A DNA stretch of 32,000 nt from Bifidobacterium longum subsp. longum JCM 1217 (GCF_000196555.1 NC_015067.1:1080001-1112000); one strand, 5' to 3'. Counted from the stretch's first letter, positions 8,818 through 23,529 are shown. Made by a program: numbers and translations. The notes: generated from the letters alone by a model not told the origin.

Positions 8818-9991
8818 GCACGTACCTTTCCGCATAATCCTGGAGGGCGCGGACGGCCGCGTATGAGGGCGCGGTACCGGGCACCCGGTTGGCGAAGAAG
8901 GAGACGCTCTTCTTCAAATCGGTGCGGCCCAGGTATGCGCCCAGATTCCGGAGGGCGAAGCCTTTTCCATCGCGGACGGCGAACCATATCGAATCCTTGC
9001 GGGTGAAATGGTCCAGCAGCTCCGGATAGTGGGTGGAGAACAGGAGGGTGGCCCCGTGCGGGTTCGTGACCGGGGAGGCGAACAGGTCCATGATGGTGAA
9101 TACGAGCTGCTTGTTGATGCTGTTCTCCAGTTCGTCCACAATCAGATAGCCGCCCGCGCGCAGTGTCTCCAATGCTCGGCCGACCAGTGCGCCGCCTCTC
9201 AGGGTGCCGGATGAGACCATGTTGACCAGCGAGTTCGGGGTGACCTCCCGCTCCTTGCCCTCATTGCGGAATTTCAGATGGATTCCGTCCTTGTCGTAGT
9301 CGAGGCGTTCGATGCTGGCATCGAACAGCGTCACGACGGGGCGGGCCGGGCTGACGGTGAGCGTCGGGGACACCGGCAGCAGTTCGGTCGCGATGTCGGT
9401 GTCCTTGACGAAGGCCCCGCAAATACTCCGGTCGGGCGGCAGATACCGTTTCGCGTCGGCGGACAGTTCGCCCCGGACGCCGGGCCTGCCCACGTTGCGG
9501 GATGAGAGCACGGTCCACCGTTCCGGATCCAACGTGCCGTTCATGGCGGAGGCAAGCATTTTCTTGCTGAGCTTGCCATGGTGGATGCTCAGGGTCTCAC
9601 GGATGAACCTCAACGGCGTGCGACCCTCGCCTGTCCGCTCGAGCAGGCTGTCGATGAGATGGAAGCGACCGTCCTGTTCGAACAGCGCGCGCACCCCGAT
9701 CCGGTCGTCCATGGTGTCGTACAAAGGGAACAGGTCGGGGTTCAACGATCCCAGCGACATGCCGCCGGCGACGGCGAGGGCGAGTTCGGTGACCCTCAAC
9801 GCGGTGGTCTTGCCGGAGGCGTTGATGCCGGCGACGCCGATGGCCGTGTTGATGCTGATGTTGCGTGCGGCGCCGTCGAGCATGTGCGTGTATCCGGGTT
9901 CCCTTACGGCGTCGATGGCGTACAGGTCCATCCTGCATTCATGGTTTTCGTATAGGCGCAGGCCGCTGATGGCGTAGCTCAACAACCTCAT
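8810..9991 (-). CDS. ABC-type (AAA_21-like) ATPase
   Basis: Walker A GINASGKTT, Walker B LIVDELENS, H-loop-like FSTHYPELL. ATG 9991 preceded by AAGGGAGA. The 15 codons upstream in the ORF track lack an RBS. Confidence 0.85.
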   Translation of the reverse strand: MRLLSYAISGLRLYENHECRMDLYAIDAVREPGYTHMLDGAARNISINTAIGVAGINASGKTTALRVTELALAVAGGMSLGSLNPDLFPLYDTMDDRIGVRALFEQDGRFHLIDSLLERTGEGRTPLRFIRETLSIHHGKLSKKMLASAMNGTLDPERWTVLSSRNVGRPGVRGELSADAKRYLPPDRSICGAFVKDTDIATELLPVSPTLTVSPARPVVTLFDASIERLDYDKDGIHLKFRNEGKEREVTPNSLVNMVSSGTLRGGALVGRALETLRAGGYLIVDELENSINKQLVFTIMDLFASPVTNPHGATLLFSTHYPELLDHFTRKDSIWFAVRDGKGFALRNLGAYLGRTDLKKSVSFFANRVPGTAPSYAAVRALQDYAERYVHA

Positions 9992-12491: not shown

Positions 12492-12847
12492 CCGTTCCTT
12501 TCCTCGTTGGCCTTCGACCCCGCGGGCATGCGTCCCGGTATGCCGAGCCGACGGCATTCAAGGCATTGCCCGTCCGTCCAGCCCGTCGGGTCGAGCATGA
12601 TGTTCGCGCAGGATACGCATTCGGGAAGCCGGTGCGCCGGGCAGTAGTGCAGGTCGCGGTCGAGTCCGGGATGGTCGTCGGCGTACAGGATCTGCCAGCC
12701 GGCGTCCATGCGCGCATCGTTCAGCAGCTCATCCTCGTCCGCCCGCCATTCGCTGTCGTCATACCGGTTTTCGCAGCCGGGCGCGTCACAGGCGAGCATG
12801 AGCAGGGGCGTCGCGTACCCGTCGAACCGTTGGGCGAGCATGGTCAT
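12488..12847 (-). CDS. hypothetical Cys-rich protein (119 aa), possible zinc-binding
   Basis: Starts MTMLAQRFDGYATPLLMLACDAPGCENRYDD. Also carries HYCPAHRLPECVSC and QCLECRR. ATGA overlaps at both ends. The Arg-rich upstream part of the 292-aa track ORF was rejected. Confidence 0.55.
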   Translation of the reverse strand: MTMLAQRFDGYATPLLMLACDAPGCENRYDDSEWRADEDELLNDARMDAGWQILYADDHPGLDRDLHYCPAHRLPECVSCANIMLDPTGWTDGQCLECRRLGIPGRMPAGSKANEERNG

Positions 12848-13470
12848 CTTGGCGTCACCCGTTTCGGGCGACGGTTCACGTCCGGCAACGGGTCGATGCC
12901 GGCCGCCTGGCGCAGCAGGTTCCCGATCCGGCGGCATGGCTTCTGGTAGAGATGCCGCCGGTCGCCGCAGGGGCCCCACATGCGGCGCAACGGCCCGCCG
13001 GCGGGGAACACGAGGTTCCCGGCAAGACGGTCGCCGTAGAACACTGGGACCGTGGGCTCGCCGTAAAGCCCGGCGAACGCGGGCCCATACGACCATCCGT
13101 CGCCCAGTTCCCCGGCCAGCGCGTTCAATCGGAGCCGCATGCAGCCCGTGACGTCCGTGGCATCGTTTTTTCCGGCTCGCCGTCCGGAGTCGGCGACGCC
13201 TTCCGCCTGCGCCCGTTCCAGTTGGGCGACCGTGCAGTGCACGCATTCCGGGTGCATGCCCGCCCAGACGCCGACCATGAACGCCATATGCCCGGTCTCG
13301 CCGGTCAGGCTTCCCATGAGGGGACGCGCCTCCCATGAGGGGAGCGGCCGCCAGCCGTCGCGCCAACAGTCCGACTCGAAGCCGATGTCATGGGTCCTGG
13401 CGGCCTTCGACGGCCATACGTGGATGAGGTCGGTCTCGACGTGCAGCGCGTATCTGAAGCGTATCGCCAT
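12844..13470 (-). CDS. hypothetical protein (208 aa)
   Basis: ATG 13470 (MAIRFRYALHVETDLIHVWPSK...) overlaps the upstream stop by 1 nt (TGATG). Globular-looking composition. Confidence 0.55.
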   Translation of the reverse strand: MAIRFRYALHVETDLIHVWPSKAARTHDIGFESDCWRDGWRPLPSWEARPLMGSLTGETGHMAFMVGVWAGMHPECVHCTVAQLERAQAEGVADSGRRAGKNDATDVTGCMRLRLNALAGELGDGWSYGPAFAGLYGEPTVPVFYGDRLAGNLVFPAGGPLRRMWGPCGDRRHLYQKPCRRIGNLLRQAAGIDPLPDVNRRPKRVTPR

Positions 13471-13899: not shown

Positions 13900-14056
13900 G
13901 GGTGTTTCCTTTCCCGTATTCGCCGATGCGGGCCAGCAGTCCGCCGAACATGCGTGATATGTCGCGCGCCGCCATACCGTTGTCCCAGGTCGTGAACCGG
14001 TGCAGCTCCCACTGGTCGGCCGCGGCTTTCGCGCTTTCGTCAAGAGGATTCGTCAT
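13886..14056 (-). CDS. hypothetical small protein (56 aa)
   Basis: ATG 14056 (MTNPLDESAKAAADQWELHRF...) forms an ATGA overlap with the FemAB-family stop. The same 9-residue N-terminus recurs at 15464 with different codons. Confidence 0.45.
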   Translation of the reverse strand: MTNPLDESAKAAADQWELHRFTTWDNGMAARDISRMFGGLLARIGEYGKGNTLGKA

Positions 14057-15324
14057 CGACCGGCTTCCTTCAGTAGTTTGATTGTGTGCGCGGCTTCGCT
14101 GAGCTTGTATCGGATCGTGCTGGTCGGTAGAGTGCATGCTCCAACCAGCTCCTCGGCATGCCCGTCGAACCCCTGCTTGAATTCCAACACCCCACGGCCC
14201 TCGTCATCCGGGTCGTTGAATACGCCGGTGATGCCGTACATGTTGAAGCGTGGCATCCGGCTACGGTTGACGCACAGGCGGAGCATTCCCTCATGGACCA
14301 ACAAGGCGGGAGCCTGATACGAACGGTATTCGGGGAGCGCGCCGGCTGTCAGATACACGATTTCACGCCGGTGTTCCACGAACAGGGCGCATGCCGCAGG
14401 AATGACGCTGCCGCGGGAAGCCAGTGCGCGCGCCTCGTTGAGGCGGTGTTCCATGGCGGTCAGGTTGCGGGTGATGTCGTCCTCCTGCCGTTTGATTCGA
14501 GATGTGGGATGATTCTCGTATTGGGTTCGCAGCAGGTCCAGCCGTTCGGCGAGTTTGTCGTATTCGGCGGTCAGTCTGGTCAGAAGTTCCCCGGCGTGGA
14601 TCTCGGCGAGCATGAAACGGGCTCGGCTTCCGAATGTCTCCTTGAACCGGCGGTAATAGTCTTCGTCGCGGGCCGTGAAGCCGCGTCGTCCTGCGGTCTT
14701 CCGTTCGATGTCCACGAACGTGCCGAGCTCATCCGCACCGAGTTCGCGTACTCGCACGCCTGACGTTCTCGCCCGGTTCACGCTCCACCGGGTGCGCGGC
14801 TTATAGGAGGCGAGCAGCGTCTTCTCATCCTTGATCCCGTCGAAGGTTCTGATCCAATTCCAACGGTTGACGACTTTTCCGTATCCGGTGTCGAATCCCT
14901 GATGCCTCCAGCCGCATGACCGGTAGGCGTCGAGGATCATCGTGTCGGGGGCCCCGATCGGGTTCCCGGCCGCGTCATGCCTTTGGTATTCGATGTTCGG
15001 CCAGCATGTGACGGACACGGCATGGCGGCGGCGTGCGGCGAGCCGGATTCCACGGGTCATGTGTTCGAGGAGTTTCGGATCATCGAGCGCGCATAACGGT
15101 CCGAGCCAGATGCTGCCTTCCGGGCCAAGCCGGCCTCGTGTCCACGCGATCAGGCAGCCGGCCGATAGAACGCCGTTGCGGGTCACGCCGATCAGATCCG
15201 TGGCGTCCACGTCCGGTTCGGCGAGATGAGCCATGTGCCCGGTCTGCTGGAATCCGCCCTGCGGATGTCCGGCAGACAGCAGATCCAGTTGGTTGAAGGT
15301 GATGGGTGTGATGTCGTAGATCAA
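14053..15324 (-). CDS. FemAB/MurM-family peptidoglycan aminoacyl-tRNA transferase-like protein
   Basis: 423 aa. Central coiled-coil insert (LTAEYDKLAERLDLLRTQYE...RLNEARALA). C-terminal FNMYGITGVFNDPDDEGRGVLEFKQGFDG is typical of the family. TTG start in a TTGA overlap, with GGAAGGA 8 nt upstream. Confidence 0.8.
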   Translation of the reverse strand: MIYDITPITFNQLDLLSAGHPQGGFQQTGHMAHLAEPDVDATDLIGVTRNGVLSAGCLIAWTRGRLGPEGSIWLGPLCALDDPKLLEHMTRGIRLAARRRHAVSVTCWPNIEYQRHDAAGNPIGAPDTMILDAYRSCGWRHQGFDTGYGKVVNRWNWIRTFDGIKDEKTLLASYKPRTRWSVNRARTSGVRVRELGADELGTFVDIERKTAGRRGFTARDEDYYRRFKETFGSRARFMLAEIHAGELLTRLTAEYDKLAERLDLLRTQYENHPTSRIKRQEDDITRNLTAMEHRLNEARALASRGSVIPAACALFVEHRREIVYLTAGALPEYRSYQAPALLVHEGMLRLCVNRSRMPRFNMYGITGVFNDPDDEGRGVLEFKQGFDGHAEELVGACTLPTSTIRYKLSEAAHTIKLLKEAGR

Positions 15325-16247: not shown

Positions 16248-16480
16248 CTCTTTTCAAGCTGTTCCGCCAGTTCGTCAAGCCAGGCATCGACGGCTTCGCT
16301 CTCATACCCGTAGGAGCCGCAGGGCAGGTTCAGATGCCTGATCTCGTCGGCGGCAAGGCCTCCCGGCTCCCCGGGGTGGGCCAGGGTGAACGAGGCGAGG
16401 CGCTGCACCAGGTCGACGGGTACCGGCATGTAGGATGCGGGAGCCGATACGAGCGGGAACATCGGGTATGCCATGCTCAT
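16244..16480 (-). CDS. hypothetical protein (78 aa)
   Basis: ATG 16480 forms an ATGA overlap with the RNA ligase stop (MSMAYPMFPLVSAPASYMPVPVDLVQRL...). The upstream part of the 205-aa track ORF was rejected. Confidence 0.5.
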   Translation of the reverse strand: MSMAYPMFPLVSAPASYMPVPVDLVQRLASFTLAHPGEPGGLAADEIRHLNLPCGSYGYESEAVDAWLDELAEQLEKR

Positions 16481-17514
16481 AGTCCGTTCTTCGTCAGGTA
16501 TTTGTTGTTGATGATTTTGAAGCACCGATTGGCTCCCAGTTCGTTCGCCAATCCTTCGGACAACTGCTGGTCTTCGCGCAGATGCCAGACGATGCCCTCG
16601 TCCAGACGGTCTTTGGTGACGTTGCCACGCAACCCGTCTACTTTGGCGATCATGTCGTCCACGCTCCCCGTCAATGCCCACTCGTTTTCGTCGAGTTCGG
16701 GAACGGCAAGATTCGGCATTCCCGTCGGCCACTGGTCGCGGTCGATCTTGTGATGGTCTTTCCAGACGGCGAAGACGAACGGACGTTGGGCCGGCAGTTT
16801 CAAACGGTTTGATTGGATACCGGGGCCACATAGCTCGAACTGGACGGCCATGCCGGGCCATAGCATCTTGTCCAACTGGAATCTTTTGGCGAGCCGCATG
16901 TTCGAGGACATGGAGTCAAGCTCCCAGTTGCGTGAGTACACGTGGACTTGTCCTCGTTCGTCCATGCTGAGCGTGGTGCTGGCGCCATCGACCTTCACGG
17001 TCGGCACGGCTTTCAACGTCTTGATTTCATCCCAGTGGTCGGTGAGCGTCTGCAAACGTGGCGCGTCCGACTTGGAGCAGGGCGCGTCGAACCGGCCAAT
17101 CTGAGCACCGCCCATCGGCAGGGGCTCCTCGTATTTGAGCACATTCGCCTTATCGGTGATGTCCGTGCCGACAGGGGGCGTATACCGGAATCCGAGTTCA
17201 TCCAAACGCATGATGAGACCCTGCGAATACACTCCGCGCAGTTTCACGGTGCGCAGCACATGGCCGGTGATTTCCATGGAACCGACGATCATGGTCTTCT
17301 GACCGCGAGCCTGGAACGCCTTGTAACGCGGGTCATAGGCGGGCAGAAGACTGTCCGTCTCGAAATAGGCGACCCTGTCCCCCGGCTTCAGATGCATGTC
17401 CTTGCCGACGACCACACGCCACCCCAATATGCGGGCGACTTCGATGCGATCGGCCCCCTCGATGGGCTCGATGTTGGTGATTTCCTGTACGCTGACGAGT
17501 TTCCTGCTGCTCAT
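16477..17514 (-). CDS. RNA ligase, DRB0094/Rnl5-like family
   Basis: 345 aa. The N-terminal OB-like segment KLVSVQEITNIEPIEGADRIEVARILGWRVVVGKD...GDRVAYFETDSLLP is characteristic. Nucleotidyl-transferase motif I is VKVDGAS. Confidence 0.8.
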   Translation of the reverse strand: MSSRKLVSVQEITNIEPIEGADRIEVARILGWRVVVGKDMHLKPGDRVAYFETDSLLPAYDPRYKAFQARGQKTMIVGSMEITGHVLRTVKLRGVYSQGLIMRLDELGFRYTPPVGTDITDKANVLKYEEPLPMGGAQIGRFDAPCSKSDAPRLQTLTDHWDEIKTLKAVPTVKVDGASTTLSMDERGQVHVYSRNWELDSMSSNMRLAKRFQLDKMLWPGMAVQFELCGPGIQSNRLKLPAQRPFVFAVWKDHHKIDRDQWPTGMPNLAVPELDENEWALTGSVDDMIAKVDGLRGNVTKDRLDEGIVWHLREDQQLSEGLANELGANRCFKIINNKYLTKNGL

Positions 17515-17652: not shown

Positions 17653-17874
17653 TCAGACGGGGCATGGGGCGCGCCCCTCGGACACGGTGTCCGATTCGAT
17701 GGTCAGGACCGGTTCGCCCTCGTCGTCGACGAGCGTGGCGGGCCGTCCCGTCGCGTCCGCCGCGGCGCGCGTGGCGGCGAGCATGCCGGCGAACGTGAGC
17801 CCGCCGGGCAGTGGGGTCGTGTAGTCGACGGGCCCGTAGGCGCCGTCCCGGGTCGCGTGGATCTCGTATTCCAT
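17653..17874 (-). CDS. hypothetical protein (73 aa), first gene after the non-coding iteron region
   Basis: ATG 17874 ([25 protein letters not shown]...) is directly preceded by GGGGACGCATACCCGGGGGC. The upstream His/Thr/Met-rich part of the 128-aa track ORF is a translation of the iterons. Confidence 0.5.
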
Positions 17875-17902
17875 GCCCCCGGGTATGCGTCCCCATACAC
17901 GC

Positions 17903-18208
17903 GGTCCGGGTGTATGCATTCCGGTCCGCGTGTATGCATCCGTATGCATCCGGGGATGCATACATCTTTTCTTTCCGTTTCGGCTTGGTTCCGACGTTCC
18001 GGGGATGGTCCGGAGGCGTGTATGCATTGTATGCATCATTCCCTTATAGGGGATTCGGGAAAAAGGAAGGAAACCCCATATATTGATGCATACAATGCAT
18101 ACAAGATAAAGGAATTATATTTTTTCCTTTATTTATAAGGGTTTTCGGGCTTTTTCCGGGCTTTTTCTGTATGCATCCCCGGATGCATACAGATGCATAC
18201 ACGCATAC
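17903..18208. repeat. iteron / nested inverted-repeat region around an AT-rich core (candidate origin, oriT or operator array)
   Basis: GTATGCAT at 17912, 17932, 17942, 18020, 18029 and 18169. ATGCATAC at 17956, 18086, 18095, 18183 and 18193. 37-bp arms 17928-17964 and 18168-18204 match at 36 of 37 as an inverted repeat. Inner perfect 17-bp inverted repeat at 18020-18036 and 18086-18102. AT-rich stretch at about 18100-18140 with TATAAT on the minus strand (18119-18114). Confidence 0.85.
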
Positions 18209-18227
18209 AAAACGGGCCGGAAAACTA

Positions 18228-18284
18228 TACAATATTGTAAAGGTCGGAGGTGAGACTTTACAATATTGTAAAGCCTCACCTCCG
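18228..18284. promoter_or_regulatory. two TACAATATTGTAAAG boxes; the second is embedded in a 40-bp near-perfect palindrome
   Basis: Boxes at 18228-18242 and 18259-18273. The palindrome CGGAGGTGAGaCTTTACAATATTGTAAAGcCTCACCTCCG (18245-18284) has one mismatched pair. Confidence 0.8.
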
Positions 18285-18372
18285 GGATGCGGTCGCCCCG
18301 CCGGCACATCGGGATGCCTTTTTTTCAGTTCGCGACCAGATCCGACGCCATATCCATCGGCTCGCCGCCTTG

Positions 18373-18393
18373 GCCCCGCCGTTCCGGCGGGGC
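18373..18393 (-). terminator. candidate GC-rich hairpin terminator (no U-tract)
   Basis: GCCCCGCCG-TTC-CGGCGGGGC forms a 9-bp all-GC stem with a 3-nt loop, about 100 nt downstream of the stop at 18491. The lack of a T-run makes the assignment tentative. Confidence 0.3.
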
Positions 18394-18490
18394 GCGCGCC
18401 GAACCTCACGGACAACGGTTCCTTGCCCAAATCGGGCTGGAAAACGGCTGATCCGGTTCTGAAGAGCCGGGCTTGCGCCGCAAAAACCGG

Positions 18491-18802
18491 TCAGGGTTTT
18501 CTCCTGTCCAGGTCGAGTTCGAGAAGCGTGCGCACCCGGTCGAGTTCGCCGGCGACGTCCGTCATCCACGCGGCGGCCCGTCTGAGACCGTCCGGCGTGA
18601 CCGTCCCGCCCGGCGTCGGACCGCGCCGGGCCCGGAGCCGGATGCCGCCGGCGGGCGTGGGGCAGGCGTCCACGCGGGGCGGCTCCTCCGGGTCGCCGTC
18701 AAGCCGGAATCCCGTGACCCGGTAGCGGACGGTCCCGTCGTCCCGGCGGATCCAGTCGATCCGGTAACGGCCCGTATGGCCCAATGTCAGGACGTCGTTC
18801 AT
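18491..18802 (-). CDS. hypothetical protein (103 aa)
   Basis: ATG 18802 (MNDVLTLGHTGRYRIDWIRRDDGTVRYRVTGFRLDG...). Last gene before the non-coding region. Confidence 0.5.
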   Translation of the reverse strand: MNDVLTLGHTGRYRIDWIRRDDGTVRYRVTGFRLDGDPEEPPRVDACPTPAGGIRLRARRGPTPGGTVTPDGLRRAAAWMTDVAGELDRVRTLLELDLDRRKP

Positions 18803-18880
18803 GGCCGCCCCGTCCGGGGCGTGCGGCGCACGACCCATTCGACCGGCCGTCCGCCGGGCAGCCCCTCGGGGCGGATGGTC

Positions 18881-19210
18881 TCAGTCGACATAATCGTATC
18901 CCGTCCAGTCGCGCAGCAGCTCGCATACGGTGACGTCTTTGACGAGCAGCACGTGATGATGGTCCTCCGCGTCCTCGAGCGTGACGAGCGCGCACCCGGT
19001 GCGGTCCGGCTTCGGGTCCATGGGGTCGGCGACGTCCTCCCATGCGACGGGCGTGCTCCCGTCCGCCATGTTTTCGTCGTACGGGGCGGGAGCCCACGTG
19101 CCGTCCGGCAGACGTTCGAACGTGTCCGTGGAATCCCGCCAGGCGTCCATGAGCCGTGTTTTGAGATGACCGGTGATGATGGCCCTGAACTGATGATCGT
19201 TGTCGTTCAT
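18881..19210 (-). CDS. hypothetical acidic protein (109 aa)
   Basis: ATG 19210 (MNDNDHQFRAIITGHLKTRLMDAWRD...) is directly preceded by GGGGACGCATGCCACGGGGC. Confidence 0.55.
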   Translation of the reverse strand: MNDNDHQFRAIITGHLKTRLMDAWRDSTDTFERLPDGTWAPAPYDENMADGSTPVAWEDVADPMDPKPDRTGCALVTLEDAEDHHHVLLVKDVTVCELLRDWTGYDYVD

Positions 19211-19264
19211 GCCCCGTGGCATGCGTCCCCGGACGGGCATGGGACGCGTCCGCGGCGAAGCGCC

Positions 19265-19669
19265 TCACCGGGCGTACGGGATCGCGTGCAGGCCGGCCCC
19301 GTCCGCCAGCAGCATGCCCCGGTCGCCGATCGGCGTGCCGTCCGGCATGGTGCTGAACGTGTCGCACAGCCACACGCCCTCCACGTTACCGGCCGACGGG
19401 ACGGGCGTATGGCCGGACACCTGGGTCAGGCGGCCGTCGTAGTCCCCGTGGCCGGGACGCGCCCACAACGGTCCGTCGTCGTCCATGTACAGGGCGGCCA
19501 GGCTTCCGGGACGGTCCGGCAGGCGGTTCAGACGGGCCGCGATCCGGTCGGCGGTCATGCCCGTCCAGGCGTGCCCGAACCGGCGGATCCCCCACCGGCG
19601 GGTGAGTCCCGCGTGCGTGGCGACGATCGTGCCGTCCGTCCATGCGATCCGCGTCGGGATGTCCTTCAT
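19265..19669 (-). pseudogene. C-terminal fragment of a calcineurin-like metallophosphoesterase (lambda-PP-like), separated from its N-terminal part by an IS
   Basis: Carries IVATHAG (motif IV) and VSGHTPVP (motif V). Motifs I-III lie in the fragment at about 21291-21611, on the other side of the TnpB element. Confidence 0.65.
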
Positions 19670-19679
19670 GAGCTCTTGA

Positions 19680-19830
19680 CGTCCTCCCCTCGGCTGAAGC
19701 CGGGGGATTCCTCCCGTCCTGACGATGGGAGAGGTTCTGGTCTCTAAGAGACCGCCACGGATTCGCGTGTAGCGTTTCCGTTGGTCTTACGTCCCTGTTC
19801 GACCGGGGTGCCGTCCGCGCCCCACAGGTT
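19680..19830 (-). ncRNA. candidate TnpB-associated omega RNA (right-end RNA)
   Basis: Position only. It covers the 3' end of tnpB plus about 65 nt downstream, including the bulged hairpin at 19686-19706. Ends are not determined. Confidence 0.3.
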
Positions 19831-21192
19831 TTCCGACGTGACGGCGAGCGTGTCCAATCCCCGTTCGAGGATGTTCCGGGCGGCGTTCACGTCGGCGTTC
19901 GCCGTGTACGAGCATTTCTTGCAGACGAAGACCGCTTGGCTCTCGCGGTTCTTCTTGTCCACATGCCCGCATCGGCTGCATGTCTGGCTCGTGTAGGCGG
20001 GGTTGACGAGTATCATGCCCACGCCTTCGGCCAGTCGGGTCTTGTAGGCGAGCATGGAGGACAGTCGTCCCATGCTCGCCTGTCTCAGGCTCCGGTTGAG
20101 TCCGTGTTTCGCGGCCTGCCCGTTGGGCAGGTATCCGCCCTCATGCAACGGGTCGGGAACAGGCTTGTTGCGGCGGCTCATGTTCGCCAACCGTAGGTTC
20201 TCCAACACAATCAGGTCGTTCTCGCGCACGAGCCGGGTCGTGTACTTCTGGTACACGTCGTCCAGTATGCGCTTGGATTTCGCGTGCAGTCTCCCGATTT
20301 CCAGCCGTGTTCTCCGATACGCGCGGCTGGTCTTGCCGCTCTTCGCGTACTCCCGTTCACTGGAGTATCCCGCGTTCCCAGCCCTGCGGGCTTGGGCCTT
20401 CTGCCGTTTCCTGATTTCACGGTCGATGGCCTTCAACCTGTCTTTCGGCAGGTCCATGAACCGTCCGTCGGAGTCGGCGGCGGCGTGCACGCATCCACGG
20501 TCGATGCCGACCGCCCTGCCGGTCGGCTCATGCTTGACGGGCGTTGGGGTGTTGTTGAACACGACGGTGCGGTTCGTCCAATCCACTTGGATGGCCGTGT
20601 ATTCGCGTATCGGCTGGCTGACTCGCACGTGCAGGAGGATGCGGTAGCGTAACGGTTCACCCGGCAATGACATGCCTTTGGGATTCTGTCCGGTGATGGT
20701 TATGATGCCGTGGTTGCGGTTGACCTGCCGGTATACGGCGTTGCGTCCCCCGTTGTGCCAGCAGACGAAACGCTGCCCGTCACGCTTGTATGATTTGAAC
20801 CGGGGCATTCGTCCCGGCTTCAACCGTTTGCCTAGCAGGGTCTTGCGTCGTTGCACGGCGGTGAACCATTCGACCCGTTCGATTCGTGTCGGTGACTCCA
20901 ATATGAGGGACGGCACCGCCGCCAGCCAAGAACATTCGCTTCGGGACCGGCTGACGCTGCGAGTGTCGGGTTCGCCTCCGATGGGGACGAGGGTTTTGTC
21001 CTTGCCGTATTTGCAACGGTTGGAACGCAATTGGTTGAACCGGTATCGCCAAGCGTCGCACAGCCAGTCCATCGCCTGACCGCCCGAACGCGCGTACAGT
21101 CTTTCGGATTCGGGGTCGTGCCGGTCGGCGTAGCCGGTGAACGGCTTGGCTCCGTCCAACGTCACGCGTTCCAACACGACTTTCTGACTCAT
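19744..21192 (-). CDS. tnpB: TnpB (RuvC-like RNA-guided endonuclease, OrfB_IS605 family)
   Basis: 482 aa. RuvC-I is AVGIDRG and RuvC-II is IVLENL. Zinc finger is CSRCGH...CKKCSY. RuvC-III is ANADVNAARNI. TGgTAGAAT, a -10-like sequence, lies upstream on the minus strand. Confidence 0.9.
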   Translation of the reverse strand: MSQKVVLERVTLDGAKPFTGYADRHDPESERLYARSGGQAMDWLCDAWRYRFNQLRSNRCKYGKDKTLVPIGGEPDTRSVSRSRSECSWLAAVPSLILESPTRIERVEWFTAVQRRKTLLGKRLKPGRMPRFKSYKRDGQRFVCWHNGGRNAVYRQVNRNHGIITITGQNPKGMSLPGEPLRYRILLHVRVSQPIREYTAIQVDWTNRTVVFNNTPTPVKHEPTGRAVGIDRGCVHAAADSDGRFMDLPKDRLKAIDREIRKRQKAQARRAGNAGYSSEREYAKSGKTSRAYRRTRLEIGRLHAKSKRILDDVYQKYTTRLVRENDLIVLENLRLANMSRRNKPVPDPLHEGGYLPNGQAAKHGLNRSLRQASMGRLSSMLAYKTRLAEGVGMILVNPAYTSQTCSRCGHVDKKNRESQAVFVCKKCSYTANADVNAARNILERGLDTLAVTSENLWGADGTPVEQGRKTNGNATRESVAVS

Positions 21193-21290
21193 AAGGCTGA
21201 TTCTACCACATTCGCGTATAATATGGGAATAGTAATGCCGTGATTCCTCCCCACGCCTAAAGGCGGGGGCACCCTCACGGCAAAACGGTG

Positions 21291-21611
21291 GACGCGGCGC
21301 TGCGCGCCTGGTTTGAAGCCCGGCGCCTGGGCGCGTACGCGCGCGAACGAGGCGGATCCGCGTCGCATGTAATACGGGACGTCATGGTTGCCGAGCAGCG
21401 GGACGATCTCCCGTCGCCCGGATTCGGCCCGGTACCATGAGGCGAACCGTTCCATGAACCGTATCATGCCCGTGTTCGACACATGCCAGTCGTCGCATAT
21501 GTCGCCGAGCAGCACGATCCGGTCGGCATGCTCCCGGTCTGCCATGTTCGAGATGAAAGGCAGCAGGTCGCCTTTCGCATGCAGGTCGCCGGCGAACAGG
21601 GTGCGGTTCAC
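21291..21611 (-). pseudogene. N-terminal fragment of the metallophosphoesterase (3' boundary approximate)
   Basis: GTG 21611 in a GTGA overlap with the upstream stop. FAGDLHA (motif I), LLGDICDDW (motif II) and LLGNHD (motif III). The frame then runs into the IS left-end hairpin. Confidence 0.65.
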
Positions 21612-22213
21612 GCCCCGCCCCCTTCCGGCAGGACCGCCGTGCTGTCCGACGTGGCGACGGACACGAGGCCGGGACGGGTCAGGAGCACGCCGGTCCTGAC
21701 CATGGCGTCCGCGTCCAGCCACCAGATCGCGTACCGGCGGTTCGCGTGTACGACCCGGACGGGCGTCTCCGGATCGTCGGGGTCGAGGACGCGCAGGACG
21801 CGGACCGGCCGGGTCGCGTCCACGCAGCGCATCACGGTGTCCGCGGGCGTCCAGTCCCAGGTGGCGGCGCGCCAGCCGGCCAATGCGGCCAGGGCGAGCA
21901 GGAGGATGACGCCCAGCGCGTTCTGGCCGGCCATGAACGAGACGACGGCGAGCAGGAGCACGCCCAGCATTTGCAGGATCATGGGCGTCAGGGCGCGACG
22001 CCATTCCGTGCGGGTCGGCCGGGGCACGGGGCTCCACGGGTCGCGCGGCCGCGTCTTCGTTTTCGCGGGTCTCGGTCCGCCCGTGGGCCGGACCGAGGGC
22101 GGACGGTCCGGTTTCACCTCGTGGAATGTTTCGGTTCGTTCGTCGGGGCCGGCGTGCGGACGGTCGGCGGCCAGGCGTCGTTCGAGCTCGTTGACCGCGC
22201 TCACCGCGCTCAC
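21608..22213 (-). CDS. hypothetical membrane protein (201 aa)
   Basis: GTG 22213 in a GTGA overlap. Pro/Arg-rich N-terminal region, then two hydrophobic helices (MILQMLGVLLLAVVSFMAG, LGVILLLALAALAGW), then a soluble C-terminal domain. Confidence 0.55.
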   Translation of the reverse strand: MSAVSAVNELERRLAADRPHAGPDERTETFHEVKPDRPPSVRPTGGPRPAKTKTRPRDPWSPVPRPTRTEWRRALTPMILQMLGVLLLAVVSFMAGQNALGVILLLALAALAGWRAATWDWTPADTVMRCVDATRPVRVLRVLDPDDPETPVRVVHANRRYAIWWLDADAMVRTGVLLTRPGLVSVATSDSTAVLPEGGGA

Positions 22214-22983: not shown

Positions 22984-23030
22984 GATTCTTCCTTTCCTCC
23001 CCCGTCCGGCACGGGGGTCTTGTCCGTATC

Positions 23031-23098
23031 CGCGTATGCGTCCCCGTCCGTGACGCATACGCGCCCGTATGGCCGGAAATCGGTGGAATTCCGGCCAT
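23031..23098. promoter_or_regulatory. two adjacent inverted repeats in the leader of the 22983 gene
   Basis: CGCGTATGCGTC-N9-GACGCATACGCG (23031-23063) has perfect 12-bp arms and contains the recurrent motif. ATGGCCGGAA-N10-TTCCGGCCAT (23069-23098) has perfect 10-bp arms. Confidence 0.6.
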
Positions 23099-23529
23099 CG
23101 TGCGATGCCAGGGCTAACGCCGACGAAGCGCGAACCAGGCGGCGGCGAAAACCGCGCAAGACCTGGAGCGGACGGCCGCGGGACCGTCCTGCAAACTAGG
23201 GCAAACCAGCCTGCAACGGCGCTCCCACCGGCCGTCCGCGCCTCTTTCCCGCTTCCCGCGTGTATCGGATGATGGGGGGCGGGGGCGAGCAGGCCCGCCG
23301 CCAGGACGATGAGCCCGATCCCGATCCCCATGGGCCGGGGTATGGGCGTGATCGCGAGGAACACGCCCCACATGATCCACCACATGGGCGTGATCGCGAG
23401 CATGAGGGTCCTGCATCGTCTCAGGACGCGCACGTCCGGGTCGGCGCGCCGCATGCGCCGCCGGCGTCGCGTGCCGCCGCTCACCCGCACCGGCCTCAAG
23501 GTCCTCGTCCTGTCGTCCATGCGCGCCGC

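Follow-up and report, generated by a model that had tools for sequence, protein, structure and literature searches.

In plasmid pSM19035 (inc18), a small ribbon-helix-helix (RHH) protein, omega, binds cooperatively to heptad arrays, i.e. arrays of 7-10 sub-sites of 7 bp placed in both orientations, which are located in several promoter regions, serve as operators and as parS centromeres, and permit co-regulation of the respective genes. The C1 operators of phage P1, the stoperators of Bxb1 and L5, and the conserved inverted repeats of phiC31 are many short, often asymmetric and orientation-biased sites, through which a single repressor controls many early operons. Sets of repeats flanking an AT-rich segment, together with bent DNA, characterize the ori located next to pri-rep in staphylococcal pathogenicity islands (SaPIs) and the ori of phage lambda, both of which are single-copy and tied to an initiator gene. 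Correia elements of Neisseria and other miniature inverted-repeat transposable elements (MITEs) are short, non-coding, multicopy sequences with terminal inverted repeats, often located upstream of genes, which they supply with promoters or processing sites. Within the bifidobacteria, megaplasmid pMP7017 contains a conserved 34-bp motif overlapping promoters, which is present at 19 sites and absent from the host chromosomes (Dineen et al. 2024, PMC10832533). Here we describe a repeated, non-coding cassette of approximately 313 bp, carried by a large mobile element of Bifidobacterium. It was analyzed in a 32,000-bp stretch of the genome of Bifidobacterium longum subsp. longum JCM 1217 (NC_015067.1, 1080001-1112000), referred to as the window, whose first nucleotide is position 1.

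Large conjugative elements have hardly been studied in bifidobacteria, which are key commensals of the gut. No description of the cassette was found in the searchable literature on its characteristic 8-mer and on Bifidobacterium integrative and conjugative elements. The interpretation that we favor, with moderate confidence, is that it constitutes a repeated, element-specific cis-regulatory (multi-operator or enhancer) unit, located in front of many operons, which would be bound by a putative regulator of the element and would co-regulate them. Among the functions suggested in the original prediction for the single locus in the window (a replication origin, an origin of transfer (oriT), or a multi-operator switch for the downstream operon) the last one fits best, and it is extended here to a family of cassettes preceding many operons of one mobile element.

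Structure of the cassette

The non-coding gap of interest extends from the ATG of a gene encoding a protein of 73 amino acids (aa) (17874, minus strand) to the stop codon of a 115-aa gene (18491). It contains 11 exact copies of the box GTATGCAT, six on the plus strand and five on the minus strand, confined to positions 17912-18200, which agrees with the original claim of at least 11 8-mers in six versus five orientations. The expected number is approximately 0.5 per 32-kb window, and none of 100 shuffled sequences reached 11. A degenerate twelfth box, ACGCATAC, which had previously been missed, is present at 18201-18208; 9 of the 22 aligned copies of the cassette have a perfect box at this site.

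The boxes form four clusters around an AT-rich center, with a spacing of 9-10 bp in direct pairs and 14 bp in inverted pairs. The left outer arm (17912-17963) contains four boxes, at 17912, 17932 and 17942 (plus strand) and 17956 (minus strand), the last two of which together create a 22-bp palindrome, GTATGCATCCGGGGATGCATAC. The right outer arm (18168-18208) contains boxes at 18169 (plus), 18183 and 18193 (both minus), followed by the degenerate one. Box counting, the repeat search and the conservation analysis also distinguished an inner left pair, TGTATGCAT-TGTATGCAT with 9-bp spacing (18019-18038; TGTATGCATTGTATGCATCA), and an inner right pair (18084-18103), which is its perfect mirror image.

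The repeats named in the original prediction were recovered, among them (i) the 37-bp outer arms (17928-17964 and 18168-18204; 37 nt, 97% complementary), (ii) the direct repeats CGGTCCGNGTGTATGCAT at 17902 and 17922, with a weaker third copy at 18010, and (iii) the tandem repeat TTT(T/C)CGGGCTT at 18142-18163. The inner inverted repeat is indeed perfect (100% complementary), but its arms are 20 nt long rather than 17. The AT-rich core was also correctly recognized: the G+C content of positions 18100-18139 is 17.5%, compared with approximately 62% for the window. This core (18100-18141) includes an inverted repeat, AAAGGAA-N9-TTCCTTT (18108-18130), whose stem is kept among copies while its 9-nt spacer (or loop) is variable, as well as the conserved motif CCTTTAT(T/A)TATAAGGG. 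The TATAAT sequence reported on the minus strand is present at 18114-18119, but it is not a conserved feature, since it has been lost in several other copies of the cassette. Adjacent to the core are three phased T-tracts (TTTT, TTTTT and TTTTT on the plus strand, in steps of approximately 10-11 bp; 18142-18167), which are conserved in all copies and probably render this DNA intrinsically bent.

The palindrome ATGCAT occurs 11 times in the cassette and only twice (17392 and 26470) in the other 31.7 kb, with approximately 8.3 occurrences expected for the whole window. Its scarcity outside the cassette may reflect restriction avoidance.

A family of dispersed copies

Six two-armed copies of the cassette are present in a homologous contig of 186.7 kb from IMG/VR, at approximately 53, 70.5, 113.6, 118, 142 and 175 kb; they are thus spread over about 120 kb, and the 175-kb copy is inverted. 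A search with the three boxes of the outer arm as the pattern revealed one further copy in a second viral contig and many copies in human-gut metagenomes. By contrast, no cassette copy was found with this pattern among 185,579 species-representative genomes, where the sole match, in one metagenome-assembled genome of Clostridia, was not a cassette copy. Within the scope of these searches, the cassette is restricted to a single element family.

Comparison of the unit with the retrieved sequences using BLAST yielded 39 near-full-length matches, representing 31 distinct contexts (from the window, from related contigs and from metagenomes of the human gut) with 30 different sequences of the unit, which are 85-100% identical to the window copy. 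The limits of the unit, 17909-18221 (313 bp), were set where 7, and later 31, copies stop aligning; the sequences outside are unrelated between copies. Among plasmids, blastn gave no match to 17909-18221, and no phage DNA matched the gap. The gap's only plasmid match is a segment of 53 bp (18441-18493), after the stop of the 115-aa gene, with 89% identity to an unannotated region of the Bifidobacterium breve megaplasmid pMP7017 (NZ_KM406416.1). This may be a shared terminator-like element.

One left flank occurs in combination with several different right flanks, which indicates that the cassettes are joints where gene modules were exchanged. In all 10 distinct contexts of the 73-aa gene the unit is retained, even though the DNA on its far side differs. 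Tandem pairs of cassettes were observed at four loci (L073, L087, L107 and L121). In three of these the cassettes are separated by a conserved stretch of approximately 150 bp (L107, 7150-7300; also L121 and L087) with three GC-rich hairpins, e.g. CCCCTCGGCTGAAGCCGGGGG and ATTCCTCCCATCCTGATGATGGGAGGAAT; this stretch has no Rfam match and could be a small RNA or a cluster of terminators.

The cassette also tends to break assemblies. Contigs often end inside the unit, and in the chromosome CP137052.1, an assembly classified as complete, a run of 100 N stands in its place (L001, approximately 9300-9560). A group of contigs with the prefixes Ga0315315 and Ga0055584 (L019, L045 and others), dense in intergenic GTATGCAT and GTATGCATAC, was judged to be unrelated. 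L045 looks eukaryotic by its open reading frame (ORF) content (long multi-domain ORFs, one of them DEAD-box-helicase-like), and others, e.g. L019, have low coding density; the GTATGCAT/GTATGCATAC clusters of these contigs presumably represent a promoter motif of eukaryotes.

Purifying selection on the boxes

In an alignment of seven copies, none of the 88 columns within boxes is variable, compared with 60 of the 225 other columns (Fisher p = 3e-10). When all 30 distinct copies are considered, a single one of 2,640 box cells is mismatched, versus 413 of 6,030 cells outside the boxes. The boxes are under purifying selection, and the inner ones are conserved as strictly as the terminal ones. Outside the boxes, fair conservation also extends to the T-tracts, CCTTTATNTATAAGGG and the AAAGGAA/TTCCTTT stem.

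The inverted repeats could in principle have been maintained for base pairing, and the folding predicted for either strand is very stable (RNA: -198.6 kcal/mol, z = -13; DNA: -83.7 kcal/mol, z = -12). However, the 6-bp spacers of the inverted pairs vary freely (CCGGGG, CAGGGG and CGGGGG; CCCCGG and CCCGAG) without compensation. A count of covariation in the nested hairpin (22 copies) gave one double change, which is no better than in shuffled alignments, and the variable non-box positions of the stem are unpaired in 5-20 of the 22 sequences. Since the boxes are nearly invariant and the stem variants uncompensated, selection is on the sequence of the 8-mer and not on the hairpin; the arms are alike because they are built of the same sites, not because their pairing was selected. 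This pattern points to a protein that recognizes the sequence TGTATGCATY, and argues against a hairpin, of RNA or of a single DNA strand, being what is selected.

Placement at gene starts

The location of the cassette relative to genes is fixed. In 27 of the 31 contexts its left end (in the orientation of the window) is separated by approximately 20-70 bp from the beginning of a gene block that runs leftward. The recurrent neighbors on this side fall into five classes: (i) the 73-aa gene with the RNA-ligase operon, (ii) a DPPY DNA methylase, (iii) a 275-aa protein, (iv) a PIF1 helicase and (v) an array of 12-20 tRNA genes. Two loci, L006 and L080, fall outside these classes, yet also have a start codon at the left end. 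The genes on the right side are usually divergent and encode a PrimPol, an RNase T-like exonuclease, a 105-aa protein, or a 183-aa protein of the XRE type with a helix-turn-helix (HTH) motif. The window copy differs in that it lies between co-directional genes.

Two tRNA arrays located directly downstream of a cassette comprise 12 and 20 genes (L007, 100-2604; L059, 849-5136). One tRNA of the latter (L059, 3417-3491) has the anticodon CTA (tRNA-Pyl according to ARAGORN) and is therefore a potential amber suppressor.

A box-like signal at gene starts

A box-like sequence that had previously escaped notice, GTATGCGTC (17884-17892), lies 8 nt from the ATG of the 73-aa gene and forms part of a gene-start signal, GGACGCATAC-N8-ATG (17872-17892, minus strand), which has the same direction as the three nearest boxes. 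A similar signal, GGACGCATGC-N8-ATG (19208-19228, minus strand), precedes a 109-aa gene. The consensus GGACGCATRC (the GGGGACGCATRC signal) occurs seven times in the window, compared with 0.32 expected, always on the coding strand, which in each case is the minus strand (510-519, 1021-1030, 2720-2729, 12526-12535, 17883-17892, 19219-19228 and 23034-23043). Moreover, 349 kb of related DNA contains 72 distinct GACGCATRC sites, mostly followed by an ATG 8 nt downstream (range 6-9). The signal resembles the box itself (ACGCATAC versus ATGCATAC), and is found 23-38 bp to the left of the cassette in 20 of the 31 contexts and 44-105 bp to its right in 11 of them.

Three signal-bearing genes of the window were inspected (starts at 1010, 17874 and 19210). 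None has a Shine-Dalgarno sequence, in contrast to many other window genes, which are preceded by a purine-rich one. A bipartite form of the signal (ACGCATRC, then GCATG) is also present approximately 20 and 66 nt upstream of tRNA genes, and for this reason we infer that the signal is more likely transcriptional than translational. It could be a promoter of leaderless transcripts.

Neither the boxes nor the gene-start motif, nor the TTTACAATATTGTAAA palindromes described below, were found in 50 kb of a pMP7017-type megaplasmid of B. longum. A motif of the pMP7017 type, TATACTGAATATG (part of the 34-bp element, PMC10832533), is instead present in L138 at 14068 (NZ_CP065398.1), just upstream of a syntenic RNA-ligase/FemAB operon. 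Since the megaplasmid lacks all three signals and bears a motif of its own, the signals are element-specific and not host-wide; related elements thus use different private signals at the same place.

An inverted pair of gene-start signals facing one another, GTATGCGTCCCCGTCCGTGACGCATAC, is present at 23030-23060 of the window. Approximately 70 nt further on, on the plus strand, Rfam recognizes a Transposase-2 RNA (23125-23193; RF03015, 72.5 bits).

Flanking palindromes and candidate regulators

To the right of the cassette are two perfect 16-bp palindromes of the TTTACAATATTGTAAA type, (A/T)TACAATATTGTAAAG, 31 bp apart (18224-18242 and 18255-18273), which were absent from the original prediction. 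The second is situated in the loop of a 40-bp hairpin (18245-18284). Combined, they create the sequence TTGTAA-18-TACAAT on either strand, and the gap contains no other match to a sigma-70-like promoter. Between one and three copies of the palindrome are present on the right border of the cassette in 22 of the 31 contexts.

It had been stated that no gene for a matching binding protein was obvious. This holds for the window. In related copies, however, the gene of the 183-aa XRE-type HTH protein (Pfam HTH_3, E = 2e-6), divergent from the cassette, starts 55 bp from two palindromes (L128, 2997-3548; also L005, 829-3199). In the 186.7-kb element, an IS607-like insertion (202-aa ORF and 396-aa TnpB) parts this XRE gene from its ribosome-binding site. 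Near one cassette copy there is also an 83-aa ORF with weak similarity to RHH proteins. Neither of these two candidates is tied to the 8-mer.

Two other interpretations of the sequence motifs were rejected. An internal sigma-70 promoter is not a conserved feature of the cassette, given the loss of TATAAT in several copies and the absence of a TTG-type -35 sequence at the right distance. Reading the palindromes and boxes as NrdR or ArgR boxes does not fit either, in terms of half-site register and spacing, as judged by eye against the consensus sequences.

The host element and neighboring genes

Nearly all genes of the window are on the minus strand, including those flanking the cassette. The 73-aa acidic protein (pI 4.1; 17653-17874) is encoded by the first gene of the downstream operon, which also contains genes for an RNA ligase (16477-17514), an NT5C-like nucleotidase and FemAB (14053-15324). 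On the other side, the 115-aa gene (18491-18838) closes the upstream gene block. The window further encodes an MmeI-type restriction-modification enzyme, HipA/HipB and GNAT toxin-antitoxin pairs, an IS30 element, a TnpB of the IS605 family, a sortase and LemA/TPM proteins. The same locus occurs in complete chromosomes (2.3-2.5 Mb) and in many gut assemblies.

The homologous 186.7-kb contig encodes a 1382-aa VirB4-like AAA_10 ATPase, the PIF1 helicase, an 847-aa PrimPol/DUF5906 protein, DNA methylases and a SpaA-type pilin, and carries large tRNA arrays. The ATPase shares 32% identity, over 98% of its length, with a protein of B. longum megaplasmids of 170-198 kb, which are taken to be of the pMP7017 type and which share the FemAB/RNA-ligase module; all plasmid relatives are B. 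longum records. Based on the gene content and the kinship of the ATPase, the element is therefore considered a conjugative mega-element in an integrated state and a distant relative of the pMP7017-type plasmids. Most of its proteins have no Pfam or PHROG match.

The TnpB gene of the window (482 aa, IS605 family; 19744-21192) splits a gene for a calcineurin-like metallophosphatase (19265-19669 and 21189-22037), which is intact (245 aa) in most related loci (L129-L136). A link between the cassette and an IS605/TnpB omega-RNA was dismissed, given that the nearby TnpB lies within this split gene, 1.5 kb away. ARAGORN also predicted a 91-nt tRNA-Trp (CCA) on the plus strand (13182-13272), amid minus-strand ORFs; it is of odd length, scores below the Rfam gathering threshold and may be spurious.

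Proposed function of the cassette

According to the interpretation we favor, each cassette would be a platform of 11-12 identical sites of 8-10 bp (TGTATGCATY), cooperatively bound by a sequence-specific protein, which is probably encoded by the element. The arrangement of four clusters around a bent, AT-rich center would be suited to a nucleoprotein complex, looped or wrapped, by which the flanking genes are jointly repressed or activated. The outer sites point at the flanking genes, which open with the weaker, box-like GGGGACGCATRC-N8-ATG. The TTTACAATATTGTAAA palindromes would add a second layer, probably as operators of the XRE-type repressor.

Several observations weigh against such a role. 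No protein binding the 8-mer was found in Pfam and PHROG scans of approximately 50 neighboring proteins, almost all of them without a match, a search that covered about half of the 186.7-kb element; nor is there a convincing sigma-70 promoter conserved inside the cassette. In the remaining 4 of the 31 contexts the cassette is the second unit of a tandem pair, follows the hairpin cluster and has no gene start on its left. Finally, the mean identity of the non-box sequence is approximately 93%, which a pure operator array would not need, and other functions or recent copying between units are therefore possible.

A rival explanation is that the cassette is itself a mobile or copy-and-paste unit, either MITE-like, with 37-bp terminal inverted repeats and several transposase sites, or spread by recombination and equipped with outward regulatory signals. 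The original prediction had equated dispersal in many copies with a MITE, and dispersal is what was found, with six copies per 186.7-kb contig and 31 contexts overall. Small size (313 bp), inverted terminal arms, lack of coding capacity, unrelated flanks, tandem pairs, IS605- and IS607-family elements in the vicinity and the role of the units as rearrangement joints would all be consistent with this origin. On the other hand, no target-site duplication was seen in the aligned flanks of the 31 contexts, where similarity fades gradually at the ends instead of stopping sharply; no empty site was found in the 10 contexts of the 73-aa gene, a sample of loci identified via the unit or via this gene; and the same end faces the neighboring gene start in 27 of 31 cases. 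Furthermore, the copies are confined to one element family, and a transposase would not need inner boxes as strict as the terminal ones. We consider such a unit unlikely. A replication origin, or a site for loading of helicase or primase by the PrimPol-helicase or the PIF1 helicase of the element, is a distinctly unlikely alternative, despite an anatomy that matches the iterons and unwinding element proposed originally: iteron clusters flank the AT-rich core beside phased T-tracts, the genes usually diverge from the cassette, and one class of copies is directly upstream of the PrimPol/DUF5906 gene and another upstream of the PIF1 helicase gene. Occurrence of the unit in many dispersed copies was a finding that, according to the original prediction, would refute an origin. 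At least six full copies per element, dispersed as described above, are unlike any iteron replicon and hard to reconcile with the integrated state. Most of them precede unrelated genes (methylase, tRNA array, RNA-ligase operon), and only one class adjoins a replication-type (PrimPol) gene. In the window, the genes are co-directional on both sides, and no DnaA box (TTWTNCACA, at most one mismatch) is present in 17875-18490. DnaA boxes are not obligatory in every plasmid origin. With six copies, an oriT is equally unlikely.

The stable folding described above raises the possibility of a structured nucleic acid, such as an RNA hairpin (an RNase III site, a terminator or insulator, or a long regulatory leader) or, in conjugative single-stranded DNA, an Frpo-like promoter or priming signal. 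In its favor, the nearly palindromic sequence folds alike whichever strand is taken, the element, which encodes a VirB4-like ATPase, is conjugative, and the downstream genes resemble establishment functions (methylases, primase, helicases). This explanation is nevertheless very improbable when set against the lack of covariation and the variable stem positions that break pairs. A hairpin does not need direct repetition of an exact 8-mer, and Rfam searches at gathering and permissive thresholds revealed no family for the cassette, yielding only sub-threshold miRNA-hairpin noise (and, elsewhere, tRNAs and the one Transposase-2 RNA). For an Frpo-type promoter in particular, the stems consist of boxes only, without a -35/-10 pair; flanking genes are on opposite strands, and one of the six copies is inverted. 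The least probable explanation, and one we regard as remote, is a methylation-sensitive switch, in which boxes bearing ATGCAT would be targets of a DNA methyltransferase of the element, so that unmethylated incoming DNA and methylated resident DNA would be read differently. The concentration of ATGCAT in the cassette and the methylase genes directly downstream of two cassette classes are compatible with this idea, but the evidence is purely circumstantial, and the conserved site, TGTATGCATY, is longer than ATGCAT and asymmetric. Such a switch would still require a reader protein, and hence refines the multi-operator explanation more than it competes with it.

Returning to the multi-operator cassette, a more far-reaching and rather doubtful extension is that this Bifidobacterium mega-element possesses a private system for transcription, composed of the cassettes and of the signal GGGGACGCATRC-N4-6-GCATG. 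The latter would be a non-canonical promoter for leaderless mRNAs, which would lack a Shine-Dalgarno sequence and whose ATG would be situated within the signal, and for precursors of the tRNA arrays; it would be read by an element-encoded sigma-like or activator factor or by a polymerase of the element's own. The cassettes would offer the consensus site of that factor in arrays of high affinity, serving as enhancers or reservoirs and allowing the joint switch-on of establishment genes (methylases, helicases, primase, RNA repair, tRNAs), e.g. just after transfer.

The position of the cassette before replication, methylation, RNA-repair and tRNA modules offers a way into the biology of these elements, and the 8-mer may be used as bait for their master regulator. 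The cassettes also serve as markers, both of the units that are transcribed and of those that recombine as modules. Should the gene-start signal prove to be a private promoter, it could provide orthogonal parts for gene expression in bifidobacteria, which are difficult to engineer. The case also calls for caution, in that iterons around an AT-rich core in a non-coding gap need not mark an origin.

Comparison with known systems

In its proposed mode of action, the cassette is most similar to dispersed operator regulons of mobile elements. The system closest in biology is the pMP7017 motif, which is likewise an element-specific cis-motif situated before many operons of a large bifidobacterial conjugative element. 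However, that motif is a single 34-bp site over a canonical -10 sequence, whereas the cassette is a 313-bp palindromic composite of 11-12 sites, accompanied by a separate gene-start signal, and the two have no sequence similarity. The omega arrays of pSM19035 are similar in consisting of short direct and inverted sites repeated before several operons. Their heptads are contiguous and form three arrays per plasmid; here, in contrast, four separated clusters extend over approximately 290 bp around an AT-rich core in at least six copies, and no omega-like protein was identified among the neighbors apart from the weak RHH-like 83-aa ORF near one copy. With the phage repressor sites the cassette shares a short, orientation-biased site dispersed over a mobile genome, and the KorB sites of RK2 may also be likened to it as a dispersed operator regulon. 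The phage sites are, however, single or paired rather than assembled into a 313-bp composite, and the host element here is conjugative and not a demonstrated phage.

The SaPI and lambda origins resemble the cassette in their two sets of repeats around an AT-rich segment, their bent DNA and, for one copy, the proximity of a PrimPol-helicase gene, but the cassette is present in at least six copies, mostly before unrelated genes. Correia elements and other MITEs are comparable as short, non-coding, multicopy units with inverted arms placed upstream of genes. Their target-site duplications, variable orientation, genome-wide spread and polymorphic empty sites were not seen in the contexts analyzed here. 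The cassette differs from the pMP7017 motif, the omega arrays, the phage repressor sites and the KorB sites in being a conserved, palindromic composite of 313 bp with 11-12 sites, present at least six times per element and coupled to a box-like gene-start signal.

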